Assembly (NCBI GenBank): GCA_964398485.1
Contig: CAYNMD010000002.1
Location: forward strand, 7,956-71,955
From: an uncultured Bdellovibrionales bacterium
GTDB lineage: Bacteria > Patescibacteriota > Minisyncoccia > Moranbacterales > UBA1568
Length of the DNA: 64,000 nucleotides
Direction: 5' to 3'
The number at the start of each line of letters is the position of its first letter. Within the stretch, counting starts at the first letter, position 1. The notes under the pieces are model-generated. The model did no database searches and was not told the origin of the DNA. It saw only the letters and a list, made by a program, of their open reading frames with translations. The position numbers and the translations under genes are program-made. This document shows, piece by piece, positions 3,052-37,088 of this stretch.

Positions 3052-3921
3052 TTAAATATCACGCGCCTTTCCAAGGGATCCGAAAAGTTCCATCTTCTTC
3101 TTTACCGCCTCCTTGAAAGCCTCCCTGGCAGGCATCAAAATTTTTCGGATATCCACAGCATCATTTTCTGGCAATGTCTGCCGTAACGTCTCAATAAAAG
3201 CAGTTTTGGTAGCAGTTTCAACATTAAAACAAGCAATACCTTCTTTGATTGCTGTTTTGACCCGGCTTTCTTCCCAATCAGAAGCCCCGTGAAGAACGAG
3301 CGGGAGATCAATATGCTCTCGAATAGCTATAAGACGATCGAAATCAGGTTCAGGTCGTTCTGGAAAACTCCCATGGGCATTACCAATAGCTATCGCCAAG
3401 GTATCTATACCAGTTGCTCGTACATAAGCACCAGCCTGATTCGGGTGAGTCATATATTTATCCCAATCCATATGTTCCGGATCTGTTACTTCTCCTTTGT
3501 AAGGGACATTACCTAATTCACCCTGGACTACTGCACCCTTTGAGTGAGCTTCTTTAACGATCTCTTGCGTCATAGAAACATTTTCTTCATAAGAAAGCGT
3601 CGAGGCATCCATCATAACGGATTTAAATCCAATCGCGAGAGCTTCCCTTACTACTGAAATATTTCTCCCATGATCCAAATGAATCGAGAGCGGGATATCA
3701 GGAAAGTAAAAATCTGCGAGATTTTTTACAAGATGATACATAGCTTGACCACCACTATACTGAAAAGTTTTTTCTGTCATCTGAATGATTACTGGGGAAG
3801 CAGATTCGGCTGCTGCCTCGAGAATAGCTCTGGTCGTCTCAAGGTTGACCGTATTAAAAGCGCCAATAGCATAACCGCCCTTTTGAGCCTGCTCTAACAG
3901 TTTTTTCGAAGAAACAAGCAT
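3052..3921 (-). CDS. fba: class II fructose-bisphosphate aldolase
   Basis: 289 aa, ...GGYAIGAFNTVNLE...IQMTE...LHLDHG..., the class II ketose-bisphosphate aldolase signature. Confidence 0.85.
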   Translation of the reverse strand: MLVSSKKLLEQAQKGGYAIGAFNTVNLETTRAILEAAAESASPVIIQMTEKTFQYSGGQAMYHLVKNLADFYFPDIPLSIHLDHGRNISVVREALAIGFKSVMMDASTLSYEENVSMTQEIVKEAHSKGAVVQGELGNVPYKGEVTDPEHMDWDKYMTHPNQAGAYVRATGIDTLAIAIGNAHGSFPERPEPDFDRLIAIREHIDLPLVLHGASDWEESRVKTAIKEGIACFNVETATKTAFIETLRQTLPENDAVDIRKILMPAREAFKEAVKKKMELFGSLGKARDI

Positions 3922-7035: not shown

Positions 7036-7807
7036 GAGTTGTCAAAATCTCAGCTCCATTTTTAGTAATAAGCACCGTATTCTCATAATGAGCTGAAAGA
7101 CGACCATCTGCTGTCAAAAATGCCCAGCCATCACGAGCAAGGCGAACTTTATACGTACCAGCATTAATCATTGGTTCAAGAGCGACCACCATACCGGCTT
7201 CAAAGGAAAAATTAGGAAGACCAGAGCCGGTATAGTTAGCAATCTGGGGATCCTCATGAAGTTCATTGCCTACCCCATGACCCACCAGATCTTTTACACA
7301 CTGAAATCCAGCCTGAAGAACCACTGTCTCAACTGCCTCGGCATACTCATTCATCTTTGAACCAGGACGAAGAGTGGCAATACCAGCTTCCAATGCCTCC
7401 TTCACCACTCTCTGAAGACGCTGCGCTTCATCATTCACCGCTCCCACCAGAACTGTCCTCGCCATATCAGTCACCATTCCCTGATACCGCATGCCGATAT
7501 CAAGCTTTACCATATCACCAGATTGGATAATCCGGTCTTCCTGGGGAATACCATGCACTACTTCATCATTAAGCGACACACACAAAGCAGCTGGAAAAGG
7601 TGGGGCGCCCCACTGTTTACCATAGCCTTTAAAAATCGGATCTCCGCCAGTAGCCAGAATCTTCTCTTCGGCTAGATCTCCGAGCATTCTCGTGGTTACT
7701 CCTGGCTGTACAGCCATTATCACCGACCGGAGAATCTCCGCTAAAAGCTTCCCTCCCTGGCGCATCAATTCCTGTTCTGCTTCAGTTTTTATCCACTGTT
7801 TCGACAT
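7022..7807 (-). CDS. map: type I methionine aminopeptidase
   Basis: 261 aa with conserved metal ligands (D, D, H, E, E pattern, GHGVG). Confidence 0.9.
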   Translation of the reverse strand: MSKQWIKTEAEQELMRQGGKLLAEILRSVIMAVQPGVTTRMLGDLAEEKILATGGDPIFKGYGKQWGAPPFPAALCVSLNDEVVHGIPQEDRIIQSGDMVKLDIGMRYQGMVTDMARTVLVGAVNDEAQRLQRVVKEALEAGIATLRPGSKMNEYAEAVETVVLQAGFQCVKDLVGHGVGNELHEDPQIANYTGSGLPNFSFEAGMVVALEPMINAGTYKVRLARDGWAFLTADGRLSAHYENTVLITKNGAEILTTLDSW

Positions 7808-15889: not shown

Positions 15890-16225
15890 TTACTTCTTAT
15901 CACTAGTTTTGGCAGCCTTGGCAGCATCGAGCTCTCGTTGTTTGGCAGCCATTTCTATTTCTTTCTGCATCTTTCCTCCGTGACGGTTAAATTTGCGTGT
16001 AGGAGAAAATTCACCCAGACGATGACCAACCATCTCTTCAGTAACAAGAACCGAAACAAAGTCCTTACCATTGTGCACGCCAAAGGTAAATCCTACCATT
16101 TCTGGAGAGATAACGCAAGCCCGAGACCAAGTCTTAATAACTTCGCGATCTCCAAGCTTCTTTCCTTCGAGCTTTTTCAAGACTCTCTGGTCTACATATG
16201 GTCCTTTTTTGAGACTTCGTGACAT
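15890..16225 (-). CDS. rpsS: 30S ribosomal protein S19
   Basis: [12 protein letters not shown] canonical N-terminus. Confidence 0.9.
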
Positions 16226-16229
16226 AGAA

Positions 16230-17060
16230 TTACTTCTTCAAATGACGGCTCCTTACGATGTATTTATTGGTTCGATGCTTTTTCTTTCGAGTCTTCTTTC
16301 CCATAGCTGCCTTACCCCATGGAGTCTTCGGGTGCATACCCAAAGGCTGCCTACCTTCACCACCACCGTGTGGGTGATCAACTGGGTTCATGGCGGTACC
16401 GCGAACGGTCGGCCGACGATTCATCTTACGAGCTCGGCCAGCCTTTCCGATTCGCTCTGCACTGTGCTCAAAATTCGAAACCTGCCCGAGAGTAGCGTAG
16501 CAATCCTTGGGAACCAGGCGAATCTCTCCAGAAGAAAGCTTGACCTGAGCCATAGCTCCATCAAGAGCCATAAGGGTCGCCTGAGAACCAGCACTTCTCA
16601 CAATTTGTCCACCCTTACCCTTTTCGAGCTCAATATTACAGATAGTTGTTCCAGCTGGAATATTATTGAGCAGCAAACGATTACCTGGAGCTACCGGGGC
16701 CTCAGGACCAGAAACCACCGTATGACCAACTCGCATTTCATGAGTAGCCAGAATATAACGTTTCTCTCCGTCGACATAGCTCAAGAGAGCAATAAGAGCC
16801 GAACGATTTGGGTCCTTTTCCAAGGAAACAATCTTGGCTGGGATACCATGTTTATCCTGCTTAAAATCAACCAAGCGATATCGTCGCTTCACTCCGCCAC
16901 CCTGGTGACGAACTGAGATCTTCCCTCGTGAGCGACCAGCTTTCTTAGGGAGCGGTGCCAAAAGACTTTTCTCTGGAGCACGATCAGTAACTCCCTCTGG
17001 CTTAACAACCGACATAAAACGTCGGCCAGCTGTGTTCTTTTTGTAGACTTTAATTGCCAT
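16230..17060 (-). CDS. rplB: 50S ribosomal protein L2
   Basis: 276 aa, with GGGEGR and HPHGGG motifs. Confidence 0.95.
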
Positions 17061-25569: not shown

Positions 25570-26196
25570 ATGAGCGAAGTTGTGTCTCTCGAATCGCAAA
25601 CCACCGCCGTGGTTCCTTTCATTTCATACTTCTGTGGTGACTGGAAACTCCACGCCTTCGCGAACGCACTCGACAACTTGTCGCCGTGCCACCGTGAACG
25701 CCGACTTGGCGGTGGTTTCATCTTCCGTATCAACCAGACAGCGCTCCTCGAGTTCGATGCCATCGTGAATGGGTTCAGTACTGCACGCTTCGAGCACACG
25801 ATCATCTTTACCCACACTGGATGCCTCGCACTGCGTGATTGCAACTACTTCGCTGGACTCAGGCAAAAGCGAGAAGCTCAATTCTCTCCAGATCATGCCG
25901 GGGAGATCGCTTTCAACTCAGCTGTCCTTAAGAAGATTCGTTTCCAAACACAGCAGCTCCGTTCCCCCATCATCTGGCACTTCGGTATCGTGGAAACCGA
26001 AAAGGTGATCGATATTCGTCCCGACTCCTCTCTGGACGAGGTCCTGAGTGCTGTGATTTGGCCATTTGGACCGCCACCGCCAGAGGTGCTACAAGGAAAG
26101 ATTCGTCACGAGCGACTTGGACCAATGAACCAATCAACTCCTGGTCGGTACCAACCTGTCACTGATTGCGGACACGACAATGCTCTCACGGCCTGA
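25570..26196 (+). CDS. hypothetical protein, divergent beta-carbonic-anhydrase-like fold
   Basis: 208 aa. GGGFIFRINQTA aligns to the beta-CA FV.RN.GN motif and TIIFTHTGCLA to the I.ICGH..CG motif (HxxC). The first Zn-ligand motif is non-canonical (CGDWK). Good RBS. The antisense ORF 25350..25844 has junk composition. Confidence 0.5.
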   Translation: MSEVVSLESQTTAVVPFISYFCGDWKLHAFANALDNLSPCHRERRLGGGFIFRINQTALLEFDAIVNGFSTARFEHTIIFTHTGCLALRDCNYFAGLRQKREAQFSPDHAGEIAFNSAVLKKIRFQTQQLRSPIIWHFGIVETEKVIDIRPDSSLDEVLSAVIWPFGPPPPEVLQGKIRHERLGPMNQSTPGRYQPVTDCGHDNALTA

Positions 26197-27404: not shown

Positions 27405-27405
27405 G

Positions 27406-27476
27406 TCGGGCTGCCGGGAATTGAACCCGGGCTACATCCACCCCATGGACGCGTACTACCGTTATACTACAGCCCG
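27406..27476 (-). tRNA. tRNA-Pro (anticodon GGG)
   Basis: Hand-folded 71 nt: acceptor CGGGCUG/CAGCCCG, U8-A9, D-stem GUAU/GUAC, anticodon stem CGUCC/GGAUG, loop AUGGGGU (U33, G37), T-arm CCGGG-UUCAAUU-CCCGG, discriminator A. No encoded CCA. Confidence 0.8.
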
Positions 27477-31619: not shown

Positions 31620-34070
31620 TTAGGCTGGAATATCTGCCTCAGTAAAAGTAACTACTGCTCCATCAGTCAGATTCCCCTCAAGGAGGCGTTTGACGGTAGC
31701 ATCTTCTACCATGTCGGCGATGTACCGATTAATAGAACGGGCACCGAACTCTGGTTTATAACCACGCTCGATAATTGTCCGAATAGCTCCCGGAGTAAAA
31801 TTCATGGTAATCTTTTTTTCTCGGTAGAGCTTCGCTGTGAACGCCTCCAATTTTAGTTTGGTCACTTCTTCCATTTCCTCATTGGTAAGCGACTGAAACA
31901 AAATAACTCCATCAAAACGATTGAGAAATTCTGGGCGAAACAATCCCTCAGCAATAATCTTATCAATAAGCTCATCTTCAATATCAGAAAGCGACTGGCC
32001 ATGTGAAGTCATCTCATGAATAAAACTTGCTCCAGCATTGGAGGTGGCAATAACAATCGTATTTCTGAAATTAACTCTGTGACCAAATCCATCAGTAACA
32101 AAACCCTCATCGAGAATCTGAAGGAAAAGGTCAAGCGCTCTCGGATAAGCCTTTTCGAGCTCATCGAGCAGCAAGATAGAATACGGATGCTCTTGGATAA
32201 GAGTCGTCATCCGACCTTTGACATTGAGCTCGGCTGAGCCGATAAGTTCAGCTATAGACTGAGGCGTCTGAAACTCACTCATATCAAGCCGTACCATCCG
32301 CTCCTCATCACCAAAGTATACGGCCGCAAGTGTCTTGGCAGTCTCCGTTTTTCCTACCCCTGTCGGACCCAGAAAGAGAAAGGAACCAATTGGCTTCTTG
32401 TCATTTCCAAGACCAGCTCGCACCTTGCGAAAAGCTTCAGCTATTTGTTTAATGGCTTCTTTTTGACCAATAACTCGTTCATGCAAAAGTGTCTCGAGGT
32501 TGAGAAGCTTCTCTTTCTCTTCTTGTGTCGCCTCACCCATAGGGATACCTGATTTCGCTTCGAGAAAGTCCTCCACAGTCGCATGAGTAATAAACGGGAG
32601 ATCCGGATGTTTCTCCCAATACACGAGCACCTCTTGGGCCAAATCGATAGCTCGCTCAGGAAATGGTCGCTCCCAATTGTAGCGCTCTGCTGAATCATAA
32701 ATTTTGTGAAGCGCCTGAATGGTAAAAACGGGACGCTTAGACTCAAGCGATCGAAAAATATCAAGCAAAATAGACAGTACTGCTTCCTGGTTAGGCTCTG
32801 GTACCTGAATAGCTTCAAAATACTTGAGTGCTGGAATTTGATGCTGGCCAATCGTGTGATAGGCCTCACTTGTCATAAGTCCAATAATACGACAGGTCGG
32901 ATAGGGCAAATATTCGTGCAATACCTCGGCCATCGCGAGATCACTCGTTGGATCGAGATACAGTTCAATGTTTTCGATAACCAAAATGACGTTCCCGGCA
33001 TACACCGCCTGATTGAGAGCGTCACGCAAGAGACTCTTGGGATCAATTCCCTGACTCCGACCATCGGAAATAAGTTGCCCGAGATCGAAAAAAACAATTC
33101 TCGCATCACCAATAGCCTGGTCAGCGTATGTATTTTCCCGAATTTGTTTGGCCAGAATATGAATCAGTGAGCGTTTCCCAATACCAGGATCTCCTATAAG
33201 AATGGCGCTGCTTTCTGTTGGTCGACTGAGTGTGAGAGCCAGCATCTCCAAGAGAGATTCACGGCCAATCGATTCATGATCACGATAATTCGAAAAGTCC
33301 CCTTCGGAGAGATCGGTCACATACCGATCAAGGTGAGGGGTATAGGCATATTTCCAGTGTTTCCCAATACGTGGAGCACGCCTCAGGTGAGACCAATCCC
33401 AAAAACGTTTTTCTTCTTGAATCTTTTGATAACGTTCCCCTTCCAATTTCCAGGCCTCATCATACAGAGTAGGATCAATGTTCTGTTCCAGAAGAAAAGC
33501 TTCTCGAGCTTCTTTGGATCGAAAGAGTTCGGAAGAAAAACTTTTGGGATGAAGTCCAAGCCGCATAACAACCCGTTCTCGCCACGGCGCTCGTTCTGGG
33601 GTGAGGGTATAGTCTGTGTGCCGCCGCGTATGATCACGCCAGCCAAAGAGTGCGGTGATAACTATAGACAAAGAAAATGTAAACAAAATACCACCCGTGA
33701 TTGGTCCAAATTTCATCCCTAATACAAATGCTCCACCCAAAACTAAGAGAGGTGCTATCACCGCAACGCTCGCTAAAAATACCGCCACCATCAAAGTAAA
33801 AAGTACCAATATGAGACCAGTTACTACGACTATGGAACGGACGATGCTCCCCAAGAGACGGACCACGAGATTATTGGTGAACGCTTCCAGCCACAACACC
33901 GGATGGAATCCTCGCCAGGTGTCATGACTCACGTCTCGCTTCCACGGTGAAAAAAGAGTCAGTAAGAGCTCGAAAATATTGAACCGATGTGCGGTATAAC
34001 GGACAGCATTACCAGCGATCCGAAAAATACCCACAATACCAGTTGTGTAGTACCACAGAAAAAAATGCAT
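31620..34070 (-). CDS. ClpB/ClpC-family two-domain AAA+ ATPase with N-terminal transmembrane segment and degenerate D1
   Basis: D2 is canonical ClpB-like (GPTGVGKTETAK; ILLLDELEKAYPRALDLFLQILDEG...FRNTIVIATSN). D1 Walker A reads GDPGIGKRS and Walker B VIENIE, both degenerate. The N-terminal 150 aa are hydrophobic (several TM helices). The track ORF runs to 34244; the likely start is MHFFLWYY at 34070. Confidence 0.7.
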   Translation of the reverse strand: MHFFLWYYTTGIVGIFRIAGNAVRYTAHRFNIFELLLTLFSPWKRDVSHDTWRGFHPVLWLEAFTNNLVVRLLGSIVRSIVVVTGLILVLFTLMVAVFLASVAVIAPLLVLGGAFVLGMKFGPITGGILFTFSLSIVITALFGWRDHTRRHTDYTLTPERAPWRERVVMRLGLHPKSFSSELFRSKEAREAFLLEQNIDPTLYDEAWKLEGERYQKIQEEKRFWDWSHLRRAPRIGKHWKYAYTPHLDRYVTDLSEGDFSNYRDHESIGRESLLEMLALTLSRPTESSAILIGDPGIGKRSLIHILAKQIRENTYADQAIGDARIVFFDLGQLISDGRSQGIDPKSLLRDALNQAVYAGNVILVIENIELYLDPTSDLAMAEVLHEYLPYPTCRIIGLMTSEAYHTIGQHQIPALKYFEAIQVPEPNQEAVLSILLDIFRSLESKRPVFTIQALHKIYDSAERYNWERPFPERAIDLAQEVLVYWEKHPDLPFITHATVEDFLEAKSGIPMGEATQEEKEKLLNLETLLHERVIGQKEAIKQIAEAFRKVRAGLGNDKKPIGSFLFLGPTGVGKTETAKTLAAVYFGDEERMVRLDMSEFQTPQSIAELIGSAELNVKGRMTTLIQEHPYSILLLDELEKAYPRALDLFLQILDEGFVTDGFGHRVNFRNTIVIATSNAGASFIHEMTSHGQSLSDIEDELIDKIIAEGLFRPEFLNRFDGVILFQSLTNEEMEEVTKLKLEAFTAKLYREKKITMNFTPGAIRTIIERGYKPEFGARSINRYIADMVEDATVKRLLEGNLTDGAVVTFTEADIPA

Positions 34071-34209
34071 GGGTGTTGATATGTCTTTGTTCTCATTGTA
34101 CCGCCCGGCCCCTCTTTGGGGAAGCATATCGAAAAAATTCTCATACGTTTTCTTTATAAAAAATCTTGCCGGAGGCCCTCGCGTAGAGAACCCCCGGCAT
34201 AAACACCAC

Positions 34210-35229
34210 TCAGGCAGCTGCCTGAAAAAGTGGCATCTTTTCAAGTATCGGGATCATACGACCCATGTCGCCTCCCCGACGATAGCGCAAGTCATCCAGC
34301 TGCCACACTCCATCCTCTCTCGATGGCAGGGTTTGGATCGCTCCATCACAGTCGTTGTAGACCGGACAGAGCTTTGGCATAGCCGTCACCTTGTAGCACC
34401 GAGTACAGCTCTGATTACCCCGGAACCAGATGGCATGCGACAACTCGACGGGAGAGATCCTCAGTCGTTTGACCACTCGGCACAAGAGCTTCCGAATGAT
34501 CGACCCCAGCTGCTGGTTTTCGATCACTCCCGTCCCATGCACGATCCCTGTCGAAATCACGAACCGCATGACGTGCACATCGACAGGAAAGGCGTCCTCG
34601 GGCATCTTGATGACCCCACGCTCGGCTAGGTAGAGCGCGTAGAGTGAACTAATCTTGGCCCCAAACCCCGGCAGCGGATCCCCGCTCGGGAATTGATCCT
34701 TGAAAACGAGGATGTCTTCGATGGGAGTTGTGTTCCCCAGCTTGAACATTCGTCGTGGATCGCCCCCAAAGTCATTGAAAAGCGTCTGGGCACAGCGGGG
34801 CCAGTACCGAGCCGAGTCACGAGGACAGCCGACCTTGTATTGACGCAGGATCTGTTCGATCTCTTCTGGAGGGATACCAATCACGACTGGCAAGTAGAGC
34901 TCTGGGTGCTCGTGCCACATGACTGCGTGACTCGCGTATACAGCATCGCTCAACTCACGCCGATCGGTCATGGTGGCAAAGAAGATCCACTGCTGCCAGA
35001 GCCGACTCCCTCCTTTCACACCCTTGGGAATATGCTTCCACTGGACTGCGTCACGCTCTCGGACGATGGGTCCCGAGCGGAAGGCATTGTAGAGACGGGC
35101 CATCACTTCACATGCCCGCTCCTCATCGACCTCGATGTCATAACGAGCAGTTTGATATTTCACGATACCTCCCGATAACAAGAATGGCTGGTGGTAATAC
35201 AGGGAGTTCTCCATGCTTCCACCAGCCAA
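34210..35229 (-). CDS. HhH-GPD superfamily DNA-glycosylase-like protein with C-terminal four-Cys (putative Fe-S) cluster
   Basis: LPGFGAKISSLYALYL (helix-hairpin-helix) followed by PVDVHVMRFV (Endo III-like catalytic Asp context) and C-x2-C-x9-C-x5-C near the C-terminus. 339 aa with an about 150-aa N-terminal extension. Local GC about 55%. Confidence 0.55.
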   Translation of the reverse strand: MAGGSMENSLYYHQPFLLSGGIVKYQTARYDIEVDEERACEVMARLYNAFRSGPIVRERDAVQWKHIPKGVKGGSRLWQQWIFFATMTDRRELSDAVYASHAVMWHEHPELYLPVVIGIPPEEIEQILRQYKVGCPRDSARYWPRCAQTLFNDFGGDPRRMFKLGNTTPIEDILVFKDQFPSGDPLPGFGAKISSLYALYLAERGVIKMPEDAFPVDVHVMRFVISTGIVHGTGVIENQQLGSIIRKLLCRVVKRLRISPVELSHAIWFRGNQSCTRCYKVTAMPKLCPVYNDCDGAIQTLPSREDGVWQLDDLRYRRGGDMGRMIPILEKMPLFQAAA

Positions 35230-35265
35230 TTCACACGCAGTACACTCGTGCCAATGTTGACAAAC

Positions 35266-36366
35266 CTATCGCCCAGCAACTCGACTGACCGCTTGCCTCG
35301 CCTGCATTGCGCCCCGTGCCCCTCGCAAACCATCGACGATCTGTGGCGCCAGCTGACTAGCCACGTCGAGCGTCCGGGTAACGGCTGCAGCAGCTGCCCC
35401 ACTCGCCACTCGTTCCACACCACCCTCGGTATGCAGACGAGCAACGATACGAAGTTGTTGTTCACCTGCTCGAACGGTTGTTTCAAGCTCCTTCGCAGCT
35501 GATTGTTTTGCACCATCAAGAGCATCTTGAATGGAAAGGTCGAACATCTCACCTTGCCCTTGTAGGACACAGATTTGTTCGCTTACCCAGGCAGCAGCCC
35601 GTTTAGCCGTCTTGTACTGAGTGACAAGCACATAGGCGAGATGCATCAACTCTGCCTCATCAAACGGCTTCTCTGCTTCGATCCGTGCCTCTTGGAGGCG
35701 AGCCAGTTCACAAAGCAGTGCGTAGGCAATTCCCTTCTTGAACTGATTGTTGGGTAACACCAACTCTTGGATTCGAACTGGCAATGCCGTAAAACGGATC
35801 GAGCGGCGCACTGCTTCCGGCTTTTTTCCGAGGCTGCGAGCAAACCTAGCAAGAGGCATTTCTGGATTCTTCTTTTTGGCCTCACGCCAGAAGAGCGTGA
35901 TGAAGCGCGCCTCTTCGTCCGGCGGTACCTCCTCATGGACATTCTCGTGATACTGCATGAGGAGCGCTTGCGAGAACGAGCTTTCGAAGTGCAGCCTGGC
36001 ATAGAAGGTATCCAGACCGACAAGCTCCACTGCCTTGAAACGGCGGTGGCCAGCTACGAGGAAAAGATGAAATTCTTCACCCTGTTCCTGGATATAGGTT
36101 GGAATAAACTGCCGGAGTTGATAGTTCGTCCCCCACATCGTGTTGATGTTCTGGATGTAACTAAGCGCAGCCCTTCGCTTAAGTGCTACGACGAGCCCAG
36201 GTGTATGTTGACCCATCGCACTGATACTGTCCGCAAGCTCATTCAAGCCATTCTGCGACATAGTTCGGCGCATCTGATGTAGTACGCCAATACACGTTCG
36301 TGGCAGATTTACGTCATATGTCCCCTTTGGAGGACGCGCAGCCATCTTCTTCAGACTGATTTCCAT
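35266..36366 (-). CDS. orphan ParB/Spo0J/Noc-family protein (ParB N-domain with GHRRF box plus HTH)
   Basis: LNELADSISAMGQHTPGLVV...FHLFLVAGHRRFKAVELVGL (ParB box GxRRxxA, with E replaced by H), then ALLMQYHENVHEEVPPDEEARFITLF...ARSLGKKPEAVRRSIRFTALPVRIQELV (HTH region aligning to Spo0J). Ala/Gly-rich C-terminus. No parA nearby. Confidence 0.65.
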   Translation of the reverse strand: MEISLKKMAARPPKGTYDVNLPRTCIGVLHQMRRTMSQNGLNELADSISAMGQHTPGLVVALKRRAALSYIQNINTMWGTNYQLRQFIPTYIQEQGEEFHLFLVAGHRRFKAVELVGLDTFYARLHFESSFSQALLMQYHENVHEEVPPDEEARFITLFWREAKKKNPEMPLARFARSLGKKPEAVRRSIRFTALPVRIQELVLPNNQFKKGIAYALLCELARLQEARIEAEKPFDEAELMHLAYVLVTQYKTAKRAAAWVSEQICVLQGQGEMFDLSIQDALDGAKQSAAKELETTVRAGEQQLRIVARLHTEGGVERVASGAAAAAVTRTLDVASQLAPQIVDGLRGARGAMQARQAVSRVAGR

Positions 36367-36469
36367 GATACCCTCCTTGGACCTGAAAAAATTGTTAAGA
36401 CAACGATGGTTTACTGTAGCAAGAAAAATGGGCGTCGAAAATATTGCCCATTAGTCTTATTTATTGCAT

Positions 36470-36505
36470 AAAAAAAGCGCCGTCCAAGAACAATGCCTGG
36501 ACGGC
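36470..36505 (-). terminator. Rho-independent terminator after the CheY-like gene
   Basis: Minus strand: GCCGUCCA-11 nt loop-UGGACGGC followed by GCUUUUUUU. Confidence 0.6.
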
Positions 36506-36535
36506 AATTGGGTCGATACCCAGGGAGACGGTCAG

Positions 36536-36991
36536 TTAGTCCCAGGGTTCAGCTTTCCCCGTCAGATACGTAGGGGGAGATCCCTCCAGAATCCCCTGCA
36601 CCTTCTCCTCGAGCGTGGCCTTGTTGAAGGGCTTCACGATGTACCCCGCGGCACCGCTCTGCGCTGCCAGGACGATGTCCTCCTTGCGTGCTTCGGCCGT
36701 AACCATCAAGACCGGCAGATGCCTCAGGCTCTCGTCGGCCTTGATGGCCTTGAGCAGCTCGAAGCCGTTCAGGTTGGGCATGTTGATGTCGGTGATGACG
36801 AGGTGAAAAGGAGCGTTGAGCCGAAGCTTGCTGAGAGCCACCGTACCGTCCTCAGCCTCTTCGACAGTGCCCACCCCCATCTCCCTGAGAAGTCCGCAAA
36901 CGATGCGACGCATCGTGGCGTAGTCCTCAACGACAAGGATTCTGAGACTATTGGTAACAAGGGGGAGTTTCACGAATACCTCCTGCGACAA
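36536..36991 (-). CDS. standalone CheY-like response-regulator receiver domain
   Basis: LRILVVEDY (acidic pocket), ITDINMP (phospho-accepting Asp), MVTAEA (Thr/Ser), YIVKPF (Lys). 151 aa with no output domain. About 58% GC. Confidence 0.75.
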
Positions 36992-37061: not shown

Positions 37062-37088
37062 CCCCACCGTCAAACCAAAACCCGAGGG
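37062..37088 (-). terminator. Rho-independent terminator after ftsZ
   Basis: Minus strand: CCCGAGG-UUUC-CCUCGGG followed by UUUUGGUUU. Confidence 0.55.

Follow-up and report, generated by a model that had tools for sequence, protein, structure and literature searches.

Endonuclease III (EndoIII, or Nth; D. radiodurans EndoIII-1 and EndoIII-3, E. coli Nth, PDB 2abk) is a protein of ~210-250 aa with a catalytic lysine in its helix-hairpin-helix (HhH) hairpin, a later aspartate and a C-terminal four-cysteine site, and ParB, Noc and KorB are CTP-dependent clamps. Here we describe a locus in which variants of both kinds of protein are encoded side by side. It lies between ftsZ and a clpB-like gene in a stretch of 64,000 nucleotides of contig CAYNMD010000002.1, from a Patescibacteria genome (this whole 64-kb stretch is called the window below), and comprises three minus-strand open reading frames (ORFs): A, at 34210-35229, for an HhH glycosylase-like enzyme, B, at 35266-36366, for a ParB/Noc/KorB-like protein, and C, at 36536-36991, for a cheY-type receiver (longest-ORF coordinates). 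The unusual element of this locus is a gene-precise exchange of cassettes between genomes.

Three further groups of described proteins bear on the comparison. Qng1 (DUF2419; structures 7ugk and 7u07), an N-glycosidase of queuine salvage, recognises a 7-deazaguanine base; its substrate is a mononucleotide, and it works without a DNA-binding partner. Specific to it are a beta1/beta6 sheet, a beta-hairpin inserted in the HhH, which closes the DNA cleft, and a C-terminal tail that extends into the active site (PMC9881137). The Dag glycosylases, unannotated members of the HhH superfamily that have a Lys-Asp pair, protect Vibrio and E. coli from phages with 7-deazaguanine DNA (bioRxiv 10.1101/2025.10.29.685425), and Brig1, of the uracil-DNA glycosylase (UDG) fold, is a further glycosylase used in defence (PMC11078745). 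Dag1, Dag2 and their relatives resemble A in that they are unannotated, recognisable by fold only, equipped with a Lys-Asp pair and carried as exchangeable cassettes in variable regions. The Dags are single genes in Vibrio integrons, whereas A is paired with B or with an orphan protein, X325, in a chromosomal slot that has no integron features. In Dpd, a ParB-superfamily protein (DpdB) stands next to an enzyme that breaks N-glycosidic bonds (DpdA, which is like tRNA-guanine transglycosylase, TGT), an arrangement that B and A share.

Our literature search found no paper linking HhH-GPD with ParB-like proteins, and the A-B locus is undescribed in the libraries and literature searched; it is made of known kinds of parts in new variants. 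Judged from sequence and predicted fold, the new parts are a candidate subfamily of HhH glycosylases with a new cysteine signature and an N-terminal extension, a ParB-like family with GHRR in its arginine box, and the apparently orphan family X325.

A family of HhH glycosylase-like enzymes and its upstream partners

In single-sequence searches, A had no match in Pfam, NCBIfam (E <= 1), PHROGs, PADLOC or, by phmmer, the PDB; neither PF00730 (HhH-GPD) nor the NCBIfam models of Nth, MutY, AlkA and Ogg matched at E <= 1. The AF2 model of A (pLDDT 90.3) matched EndoIII, archaeal Ogg, MutY and Qng1 in Foldseek, and it has the two-lobe helical fold, HhH, Gly/Pro-rich loop and catalytic Asp that characterise HhH-GPD proteins. 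Among the sequence searches, only that with a profile of the A family reached EndoIII (E 0.03, PDB). In that profile alignment LPGFGPK...FPVDVHVQRF of A falls on LPGVGVK...FPVDTHVHRV of D. radiodurans EndoIII-1, which places the invariant K192 and D217 of A on the catalytic Lys and Asp; with a lysine aligned to the catalytic lysine of the Nth hairpin, A carries a predicted lyase signature. Fold, profile and invariant residues agree with the HhH/Asp glycosylase core that the first-pass annotation had read from this gene, and A is a member of the HhH base-excision superfamily with a bifunctional signature, not an orthologue of Nth, MutY or AlkA, in line with the absence of Pfam and NCBIfam matches.

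The most likely start of A is the GTG at 35163 behind GGGAGG-tatc, chosen because homologues of 317-322 aa begin at the matching residue, so that the gene would run from 35163 to 34210 and encode 317 aa. In the 339-aa numbering used here, the HhH hairpin LPGFGAK (34651-34671) holds the invariant K192 (K170 from the true start), FPVDVH (34573-34587) holds the invariant Asp at the catalytic position, D217 (D195 from the true start), and a putative metal site, C-x2-C-x9-C-x5-C (34348-34407), consists of the invariant C275, C278, C288 and C294, which may bind Fe-S or Zn. The N-terminal extension has invariant residues too, T88, D89, H101, Y112 and W143 among others.

The Lys and Asp are shared with EndoIII/Nth residue for residue, and both have a C-terminal four-Cys site, but the cysteines of A depart from the C-x6-C-x2-C-x5-C spacing of the Nth [4Fe-4S] cluster, as the first-pass annotation had noticed. 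Further differences from EndoIII/Nth are the greater length of A, its conserved N-terminal extension (MTDRRE and YWPRC motifs), a Lys-Asp spacing of 25 against 18, and its location on a mobile cassette that follows a gene for X325 or a ParB-like protein. Qng1 is similar to A in length, in the Lys/Asp pair and in an extra small beta-sheet joining the N-terminus to a strand past the catalytic Asp; in the A model this beta1/beta6-like sheet is formed by strands 22-35 and 230-237. At 12% identity, A differs from Qng1 in having no Pfam match and in having a four-Cys site. Its model shows no strands in the HhH hairpin (179-190) and so no sign of the beta-hairpin that interrupts it in Qng1; the C-terminus of the model is of low confidence. 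Qng1, with its 7-deazaguanine recognition, as the closest structural neighbour of A is suggestive only.

The A family comprises 54 clusters at 90% identity, and the B family 37. Few of these are named, and nearly all the named ones are metagenome-assembled genomes (MAGs) of Kaiserbacteria, Minisyncoccota or "Patescibacteria group", with two entries labelled Undibacterium; JGI labels some A members "endonuclease III". A pattern scan for A, with one genome per species, gave 23 loci (L007-L029; related loci carry L numbers below) in 185,579 species genomes, which is a lower bound. Their labels are Kaiserbacteria, Moranbacteria, Saccharibacteria, Gracilibacteria and Lloydbacteria, and a few have automatic labels such as "Bdellovibrionales", which we do not trust. 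When 1.84 billion representatives were searched with a hidden Markov model (HMM) of A, 77 proteins were found at E <= 1e-30 and 837 at E <= 1e-3. The A family, itself without annotation, has been seen only in Patescibacteria. A viral origin of A or B was considered and rejected, as IMG/VR viral contigs yielded no relative of either. More distant A-like proteins lack the Cys tail, and a few of them give sub-threshold AGOG matches; two such distant domains (P0217 and P0234), also without the tail, are fused to thymidylate kinase, which hints that part of the wider superfamily may act in nucleotide metabolism.

The predominant partner of A is X325, a protein of ~325 aa (L007:7061-8038, L001:7049-8026 and 18 other loci). 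Of the 23 pattern-scan loci, 20 have a readable gene other than B directly upstream of A, and in all 20 it encodes X325. In the remaining three of the 23, B is upstream (L010) or convergent (L022), or the sequence is cut just upstream of A (L029). X325 and A often overlap by ~35 nt, and this overlap is dual-coding: the X325 C-terminus, ...E-C/I-P-F, and the A N-terminus, M-R-x-T-x-A-R-F/Y, are read in two frames, with the ribosome-binding site (RBS) of A within the X325 LER(K/S) codons. Most X325 members terminate in E-[CIV]-P-F. The X325 proteins make up a separate family of 49 clusters without annotation; in at least 14 of these, the contig has the same length as that of an A match. X325 has no match in Pfam, the PDB or PADLOC. 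That X325 is a cryptic ParB was ruled out by hhalign against the B family (probability 0.1%), and a resemblance of its residues 203-294 to the N-domain of RNA-polymerase delta (E 0.14-0.5) is not significant. Other neighbours of X325-A pairs are the housekeeping genes of ArgRS, a TrhO-like rhodanese, SmpB, RRF, MreB and PriA.

The protein encoded upstream of A is nearly always one of two unrelated ones, X325 or B. B takes the upstream place in the window, L004/5, L006, L010, L033 and L041, and is a convergent neighbour of A in a distant lineage, L022/L032. On a neighbour-joining (NJ) tree of A, the B-partnered genes sit at five separate positions among the X325-partnered ones, the distant convergent pair being one of the five. 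Because the adjacency recurs at five separate places on the tree, a functional link between B and A remains plausible. B is also found without A, either beside a weakly nucleotidyltransferase-like protein and ArgRS (L002/3, L038) or flanked by RNase R on one side and by a 736-aa SMC_N protein, in convergent orientation, on the other (L030, L031, L035-L037). A 275-aa neighbour of B in L002, Y275, was considered as a short A and ruled out, as it has no BLASTP similarity and a weak nucleotidyltransferase match. The 736-aa SMC_N protein (L030:7227-9437) scores on the PADLOC mad3 and LmuB models as well, and by sequence it may be an SMC of either the chromosome-organisation or the defence type. The first-pass annotation had presented the ParB-like protein and the glycosylase as a pair; as a standard pair they do not hold, X325 being the predominant partner and the B and A alleles reassorting independently. 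A lack of any conserved co-occurrence, which it had named as speaking against its view, is half borne out: the adjacency recurs, but X325 is the main partner and B often occurs without A.

B scores below all the curated cut-offs (PF02195, ParB_N, 21.5 against 26.3; TIGR00180, 45.7 against 58.45; TIGR04285, 26 against 315) and was aligned by HMMER to B. subtilis Spo0J (PDB 6sdk) over residues 103-205 with E 1.5e-5. The top Foldseek matches of its AF2 model (pLDDT 81.7) are Noc (7ol9/7nfu), ParB-CDP (7bnk/6sdk) and KorB (8qa9), with Spo0J too, at E 5e-8 to 1e-4. The model indicates a ParB N-terminal domain fold and a helix-turn-helix (HTH) DNA-binding domain within the 366 aa, as had been proposed before. 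In an alignment of 36 family members, box I reads SIxxxGQxxPG with Q53 invariant, box II reads VAGHRRF(K/R)A with G106 and R109 invariant and the canonical Glu replaced by His in most members, and box III reads QYHENVHEE / ENxHE with E141 and N142 invariant. Box II of B, with GHRR for GERR, is at 36040-36051, and the canonical GERR is kept in the distant relatives L032/P0090 and L040. The box I Gln and the box II Glu take part in CTP hydrolysis in ParB CTPases, and PDB entries in the Foldseek listing include the M. xanthus ParB mutants Q52A and E93A. From these residues we infer that B may bind nucleotide with altered turnover.

B is like the ParB/Noc/KorB clamps in its N-domain and HTH, in the box I Gln, in the Gly and two Arg of box II and in the Glu-Asn of box III. 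It differs in the box II His, in a box III of ENxHE rather than ENLQRE, in a C-terminal region of 150 aa made of unrelated long helices, in the absence of ParA, and in being encoded by a gene that is swapped among strains and replaceable by that of an unrelated protein. As the first-pass annotation had noted, no ParA partner is present: the window encodes no ParA-type protein with a deviant Walker A motif (KGGxGK[ST]), and the gene tables examined for related loci list none either. No parS-like or palindromic repeat family occurs in the locus. The adjacent ParA and parS of a chromosomal ParABS system are thus both missing here; a parAB pair may lie elsewhere in the genome.

The spacer between B and A (35164-35265) contains the RBS of A and a hairpin, GGCTGGTGG...CCACCAGCC, whose stem is kept in 6 B-A loci with diverged B alleles; among these loci, 5 of 26 predicted pairs are changed on both sides (RNAalifold). 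The hairpin precedes a T-rich stretch. Attenuator, processing site and protein-binding site are candidate roles for it.

Exchange of single genes in a fixed chromosomal slot

The first-pass annotation had seen the three genes as a stretch that interrupts a conserved neighbourhood. It does not do so as a one-off insertion: in every relative fetched for this slot, the gap between ftsZ and the clpB-like gene, or between ftsZ and nrdR, is filled with related cargo; as homologues of A or B were the route to these relatives, the search could not have turned up an empty slot. In this Patescibacteria genome the slot is a fixed place on the chromosome and the GC3-rich genes in it are accessory cargo; comparison with four relatives shows how this cargo changes.

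In L033, nearly all 100-nt windows outside B are 95-100% identical to the window. The exceptions are 36466-35169, which is exactly gene B (53-80%), a stretch of cheY at 36765-36567, and an insertion of 1.06 kb at 37076. At the protein level, ftsA and ftsZ are 99.8% identical, A is 97% and the clpB-like protein 98.5% identical, but B is 63% identical. L041 has kept B (100%, with ftsZ at 99.6%) and has no cheY, while its A is 76% and its clpB-like protein 58% identical; with ftsZ nearly unchanged, the latter value indicates that the variable zone reaches into the clpB-like gene. In L006, blastn aligned 37077-35114 at 91.5% and 34199-28001 at 87.5%, and nothing in between, so that the body of A is replaced from ~50 nt inside the gene to the terminator (34199-35114). 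The L006 proteins agree, with B at 96%, NrdR at 100% and A at 52% identity.

The fourth relative, L045, is more distant: ftsZ, nrdR and the ribosomal genes have 76-78% DNA identity, and the flanks of the shared segment ~68-82%. Over 35172-34156, that is, the RBS, the ORF and the terminator of A, it shares 97.0% DNA identity with the window, and there the segment follows an X325 gene and directly precedes nrdR. A behaves as a single-gene cassette exchanged between genomes, and the slot between ftsZ and the clpB-like gene behaves as a recombination hotspot of gene-sized cassettes.

The ends of the A cassette are conserved. Its terminator hairpin (34167-34199, 14 pairs) travels with the cassette and is conserved in 10 loci regardless of the next gene, with compensatory changes in 4 pairs, and the first ~50 nt of A and its RBS are conserved as well. 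In the comparison with L006, the breakpoints fall at this 5' leader and at the terminator. The two conserved ends may serve as homology arms for homologous recombination. The cassette is bounded by a coding leader and a terminator hairpin, and the ends of integron or island cassettes were not found. As the locus has no tRNA at its borders, no flanking direct repeats and no Rfam elements, and the ORFs and gene tables examined include no integrase, this is not a classical integrative island.

Base composition also sets the three genes apart. The 1-kb windows across 34-37 kb have a GC content of 0.527-0.548, against 0.41-0.50 in the remaining window (by gene, A 0.557, B 0.536 and cheY ~0.58), which bears out the GC-rich three-gene stretch of the first-pass annotation. 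GC at third codon positions (GC3) is 0.654 in A, 0.534 in B and 0.757 in cheY, against a mean of 0.415 (standard deviation, sd, 0.061) in 64 other ORFs, an excess of +3.9, +2.0 and +5.6 sd, respectively; the uniform GC and codon usage that would have spoken against such a stretch was not found. At first and second positions (GC1 and GC2) the three genes are ordinary. Amino-acid content was ruled out as the cause of the GC excess on this ground, and as the excess is confined to third codon positions it is a codon-level signal rather than one of protein composition. We read this signal as a codon-level mark of probable foreign or recombinant origin. A similar contrast is seen in L006 (cheY 0.73, B 0.56 and A 0.57, against 0.36-0.44 in the flanks), in L033, which is alike, and in L032 (B 0.42 and A 0.40, against 0.27-0.32). 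The GC3 of these genes is unremarkable in L001 and L004, where the background GC3 is already 0.55-0.67. Since the alleles have a GC3 of ~0.55-0.70 in most genomes, the contrast is visible only in low-GC3 hosts.

The receiver, transcription units and other features of the window

Terminator-like hairpins were found downstream of ftsZ (37100-37079), cheY (36506-36478) and A (34199-34167), the first two where they had been proposed from the sequence. The one after cheY, a hairpin of 11 pairs, 7 of them GC, followed by a T-run, is conserved in L006. A hairpin scan of the locus found no terminator-like hairpin in the B-A interval. With terminators after cheY and A and none in the B-A gap, the locus has two transcription units, a monocistronic cheY and a B-A operon.

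The most likely start of the receiver gene is the GTG at 36973, behind AGGAGG-tattc, with RBS and start read in the L006 alignment; C would then span 36536-36973 and have 145 aa, the length at which the gene is called in identical contigs. Against Pfam Response_reg it scores 95.5 bits over model positions 1-111 of 111, end to end, and its translation has the phospho-acceptor equivalents D57 (ITDINMP), T87 (MVTAE) and K109 (VKPF), with E-D as the first acidic pair, so the earlier description as an intact single-domain receiver stands. We take its motifs MVTAEA and GYIVKPF to be near-identical to those of E. coli CheY. The full receiver domain is shared with the CheY family, but the score against NCBIfam CheY (NF007901), 161.6 bits, is under the equivalog cut-off of 189, the acidic pair is E-D, and the gene is variably present in the slot. 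In PADLOC C has a weak SduA match only. The part of the window examined for them, 30-41 kb, showed no gene for a kinase or for chemotaxis.

The window, L006, L010, L033 and L034 have C immediately before B, whereas L004, L007 and L041 lack it and L008 has it downstream of A. As a separate transcription unit that is absent or placed differently in close relatives, it takes the ground from the trio as a system, which the first-pass annotation had put forward: A, B and cheY are not one fixed system. C is probably co-resident cargo, possibly a regulator of B, and not a core part. The slot of L010 has two separate receiver genes (7127-7588 and 3100-3495), several ORFs without matches and no clpB-like gene.

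The slot holds other genes in several relatives. The extra 1.06 kb of L033 lies between the ftsZ terminator and cheY (L033:4230-5286; L041:1527-2412 in the other near-identical strain, both at 37076 of the window) and has two GC3-rich ORFs, the first of 124 aa without a match and the second of 125 aa with a weak likeness to PadR. Pfam and PADLOC searches with the extra slot cargo of L010, L008, L006, L033 and L004 were uninformative apart from weak PadR matches and a second receiver. On the other side of A, the ClpB-like ORF (31620-34244, minus strand) overlaps the 3' end of A only through an upstream extension; its homologues have 816 aa, which puts its true start near 34070. The protein has no Clp_N, a hydrophobic N-terminal region of ~230 aa and one strong AAA+ module (AAA_2 and ClpB_D2-small), and its PADLOC matches are generic AAA+ ones only. 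The clpB-like gene is missing at this position in L045 and L010.

Across the window, the minus strand carries almost every long ORF, and GC skew is negative in all 1-kb windows except one. Raised GC3 is also seen in two plus-strand ORFs, 25570-26196 (0.57) and 16071-16916 (0.56), of which the latter may be a spurious ORF opposite a real gene. The sole tRNA of the window is tRNA-Pro(GGG), at 27405-27476.

Possible roles of A and its partners

We tentatively favour, at somewhat less than even confidence, a reading in which A is a DNA glycosylase and apurinic/apyrimidinic (AP) lyase that is brought to DNA by a DNA-binding partner and used against foreign DNA, not in core repair. In this proposal A would flip out and excise a non-canonical DNA base and nick the strand via a Schiff base on its Lys. 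The upstream partner, X325 elsewhere and B here, would load on DNA and bring or license A, with B probably a nucleotide-gated clamp of altered hydrolysis, and A and B would serve in conflict with foreign DNA, A being a defence-associated glycosylase rather than a universal housekeeping repair enzyme. That A acts on DNA is suggested by an HhH that looks uninterrupted in the model, the Lys and Asp in the catalytic places, a Cys site at the C-terminus like that of DNA-binding members of the superfamily, and its DNA-binding partners. A role in conflict is suggested because replacement of alleles among strains, recent transfer from one species to another, foreign GC3 and a patchy distribution fit it better than they fit core repair; the Dag glycosylases, with Brig1 as a further case, are a published precedent.

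Several observations weigh against this proposal. A, B and X325 have no match among the defence models of PADLOC-DB v2, a library of 2023 that predates the Dag glycosylases. In the loci examined in other lineages, the neighbours of X325-A pairs are plain housekeeping genes, with no restriction, methylase or nuclease genes among them. The free reassortment of B and A alleles, together with the replacement of B by an unrelated protein, argues against a tightly co-adapted B-A complex, and B found without A, next to SMC_N or ArgRS genes, may have a function of its own. The exchange of alleles could also follow simply from a high rate of natural transformation, comEC being 3 kb away. The glycosylase activity of A is itself a prediction from fold and residues.

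Somewhat unlikely, in our estimate, is that A is a housekeeping repair enzyme, a base-excision glycosylase/AP-lyase that replaces Nth or works beside it, with X325 or B as accessory DNA-binding factors and the shuffling a product of general recombination in competent Patescibacteria. The EndoIII-like fold, Lys/Asp pair and C-terminal Cys cluster of A would suit such a role, as would the absence from the 64-kb window of any Nth-type protein, looked for by its cysteine spacing, the housekeeping surroundings in every lineage, the lack of viral-contig relatives and of defence-model matches, and the JGI naming of some members. From a core repair enzyme one would not, however, expect alleles of 52-76% identity between strains with flanks at 88-99%, or 97% identity between genomes with flanks at ~77%. 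The foreign GC3 of A in its host and the recovery of as few as 23 loci, the lower bound given above, point the same way.

It is quite unlikely that B is the functional centre, as a ParB-family clamp for chromosome organisation or nucleoid occlusion near ftsZ, possibly under the control of CheY, with A a mere neighbouring cassette. The ParB/Noc/KorB fold with retained residues in boxes I-III, the receiver directly upstream of B in the five loci named above, the B homologues convergent with the SMC_N protein in another lineage and the occurrence of B without A are consistent with this view. B adjoins ftsZ in one lineage only, which leaves the Noc-like factor next to ftsZ that the first-pass annotation had considered on weak ground, and in the same slot the close relatives L007, L008 and L045 have X325 and no B. 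The swap of B for a 63% identical allele between near-identical strains would be odd for a protein with cognate sites, of which the locus shows no parS-like repeat, and the B-A adjacency has arisen independently in another arrangement (L022/L032).

We consider it very doubtful that A does not act on DNA and is instead a Qng1-like N-glycosidase for a free modified nucleotide or nucleoside, such as queuosine-5'-phosphate, in base salvage by bacteria unable to make nucleotides. The strands of the A model that resemble the Qng1-specific sheet (PMC9881137), the thymidylate kinase fusions of distant A-like proteins without the Cys tail, and the tRNA-related neighbours of A in one lineage (ArgRS, TrhO-like, SmpB) could be read in its favour. 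Against it stand the HhH hairpin, which looks uninterrupted in the A model where Qng1 has the inserted cleft-blocking beta-hairpin, a four-Cys site typical of DNA-binding members, EndoIII as the sole sequence match of A in the significant range, and a DNA-binding ParB as its alternative partner.

A Dpd-like DNA modification system, with B as an NTPase partner like DpdB and A exchanging or inserting a modified base like DpdA, is highly improbable: a ParB-like protein beside an enzyme of N-glycosidic bonds, and the structural proximity of A to the 7-deazaguanine-recognising Qng1, keep an analogy in the manner of working possible, but the membership that the first-pass annotation had evoked fails, as A has an HhH fold and not the TGT TIM-barrel of DpdA, neither A nor B matches a PADLOC Dpd model, the locus and the relatives examined have no preQ0 synthesis genes and no DpdC, and B is dispensable, X325 taking its place.

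Returning to A as a glycosylase that a partner brings to foreign DNA, we also considered a more specific version, which we regard as unlikely as a whole: a two-gene conflict system particular to Patescibacteria, in which an interchangeable DNA sensor, X325 or a nucleotide-gated ParB-type clamp, would load onto foreign or modified DNA and direct a Qng1/EndoIII-like metal-cluster glycosylase/lyase to excise non-canonical bases, for example 7-deazaguanines, and in which enzyme and sensor would be diversified by single-gene cassette exchange via short conserved ends in competent cells.

The genomes of Patescibacteria are minimal, and a role has been assigned to few of the genes that are specific to their lineages. 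Here an unannotated enzyme family comes with two alternative and unrelated upstream partners, one of them of the ParB type. Should these partners direct the glycosylase to DNA, the arrangement would amount to a new use of the ParB-family module and a new two-component, glycosylase-based form of defence or repair. With its small proteins, predicted catalytic residues and natural sets of alleles, the system is amenable to testing, and it should be of interest to those who study Patescibacteria, DNA glycosylases, ParB-family proteins and defence systems. Whatever the function, the locus offers a clean natural case of single-gene replacement, apparently via short conserved ends, between strains as well as across genomes of ~77% identity, and this cassette exchange bears on how episymbiotic, naturally competent bacteria diversify.

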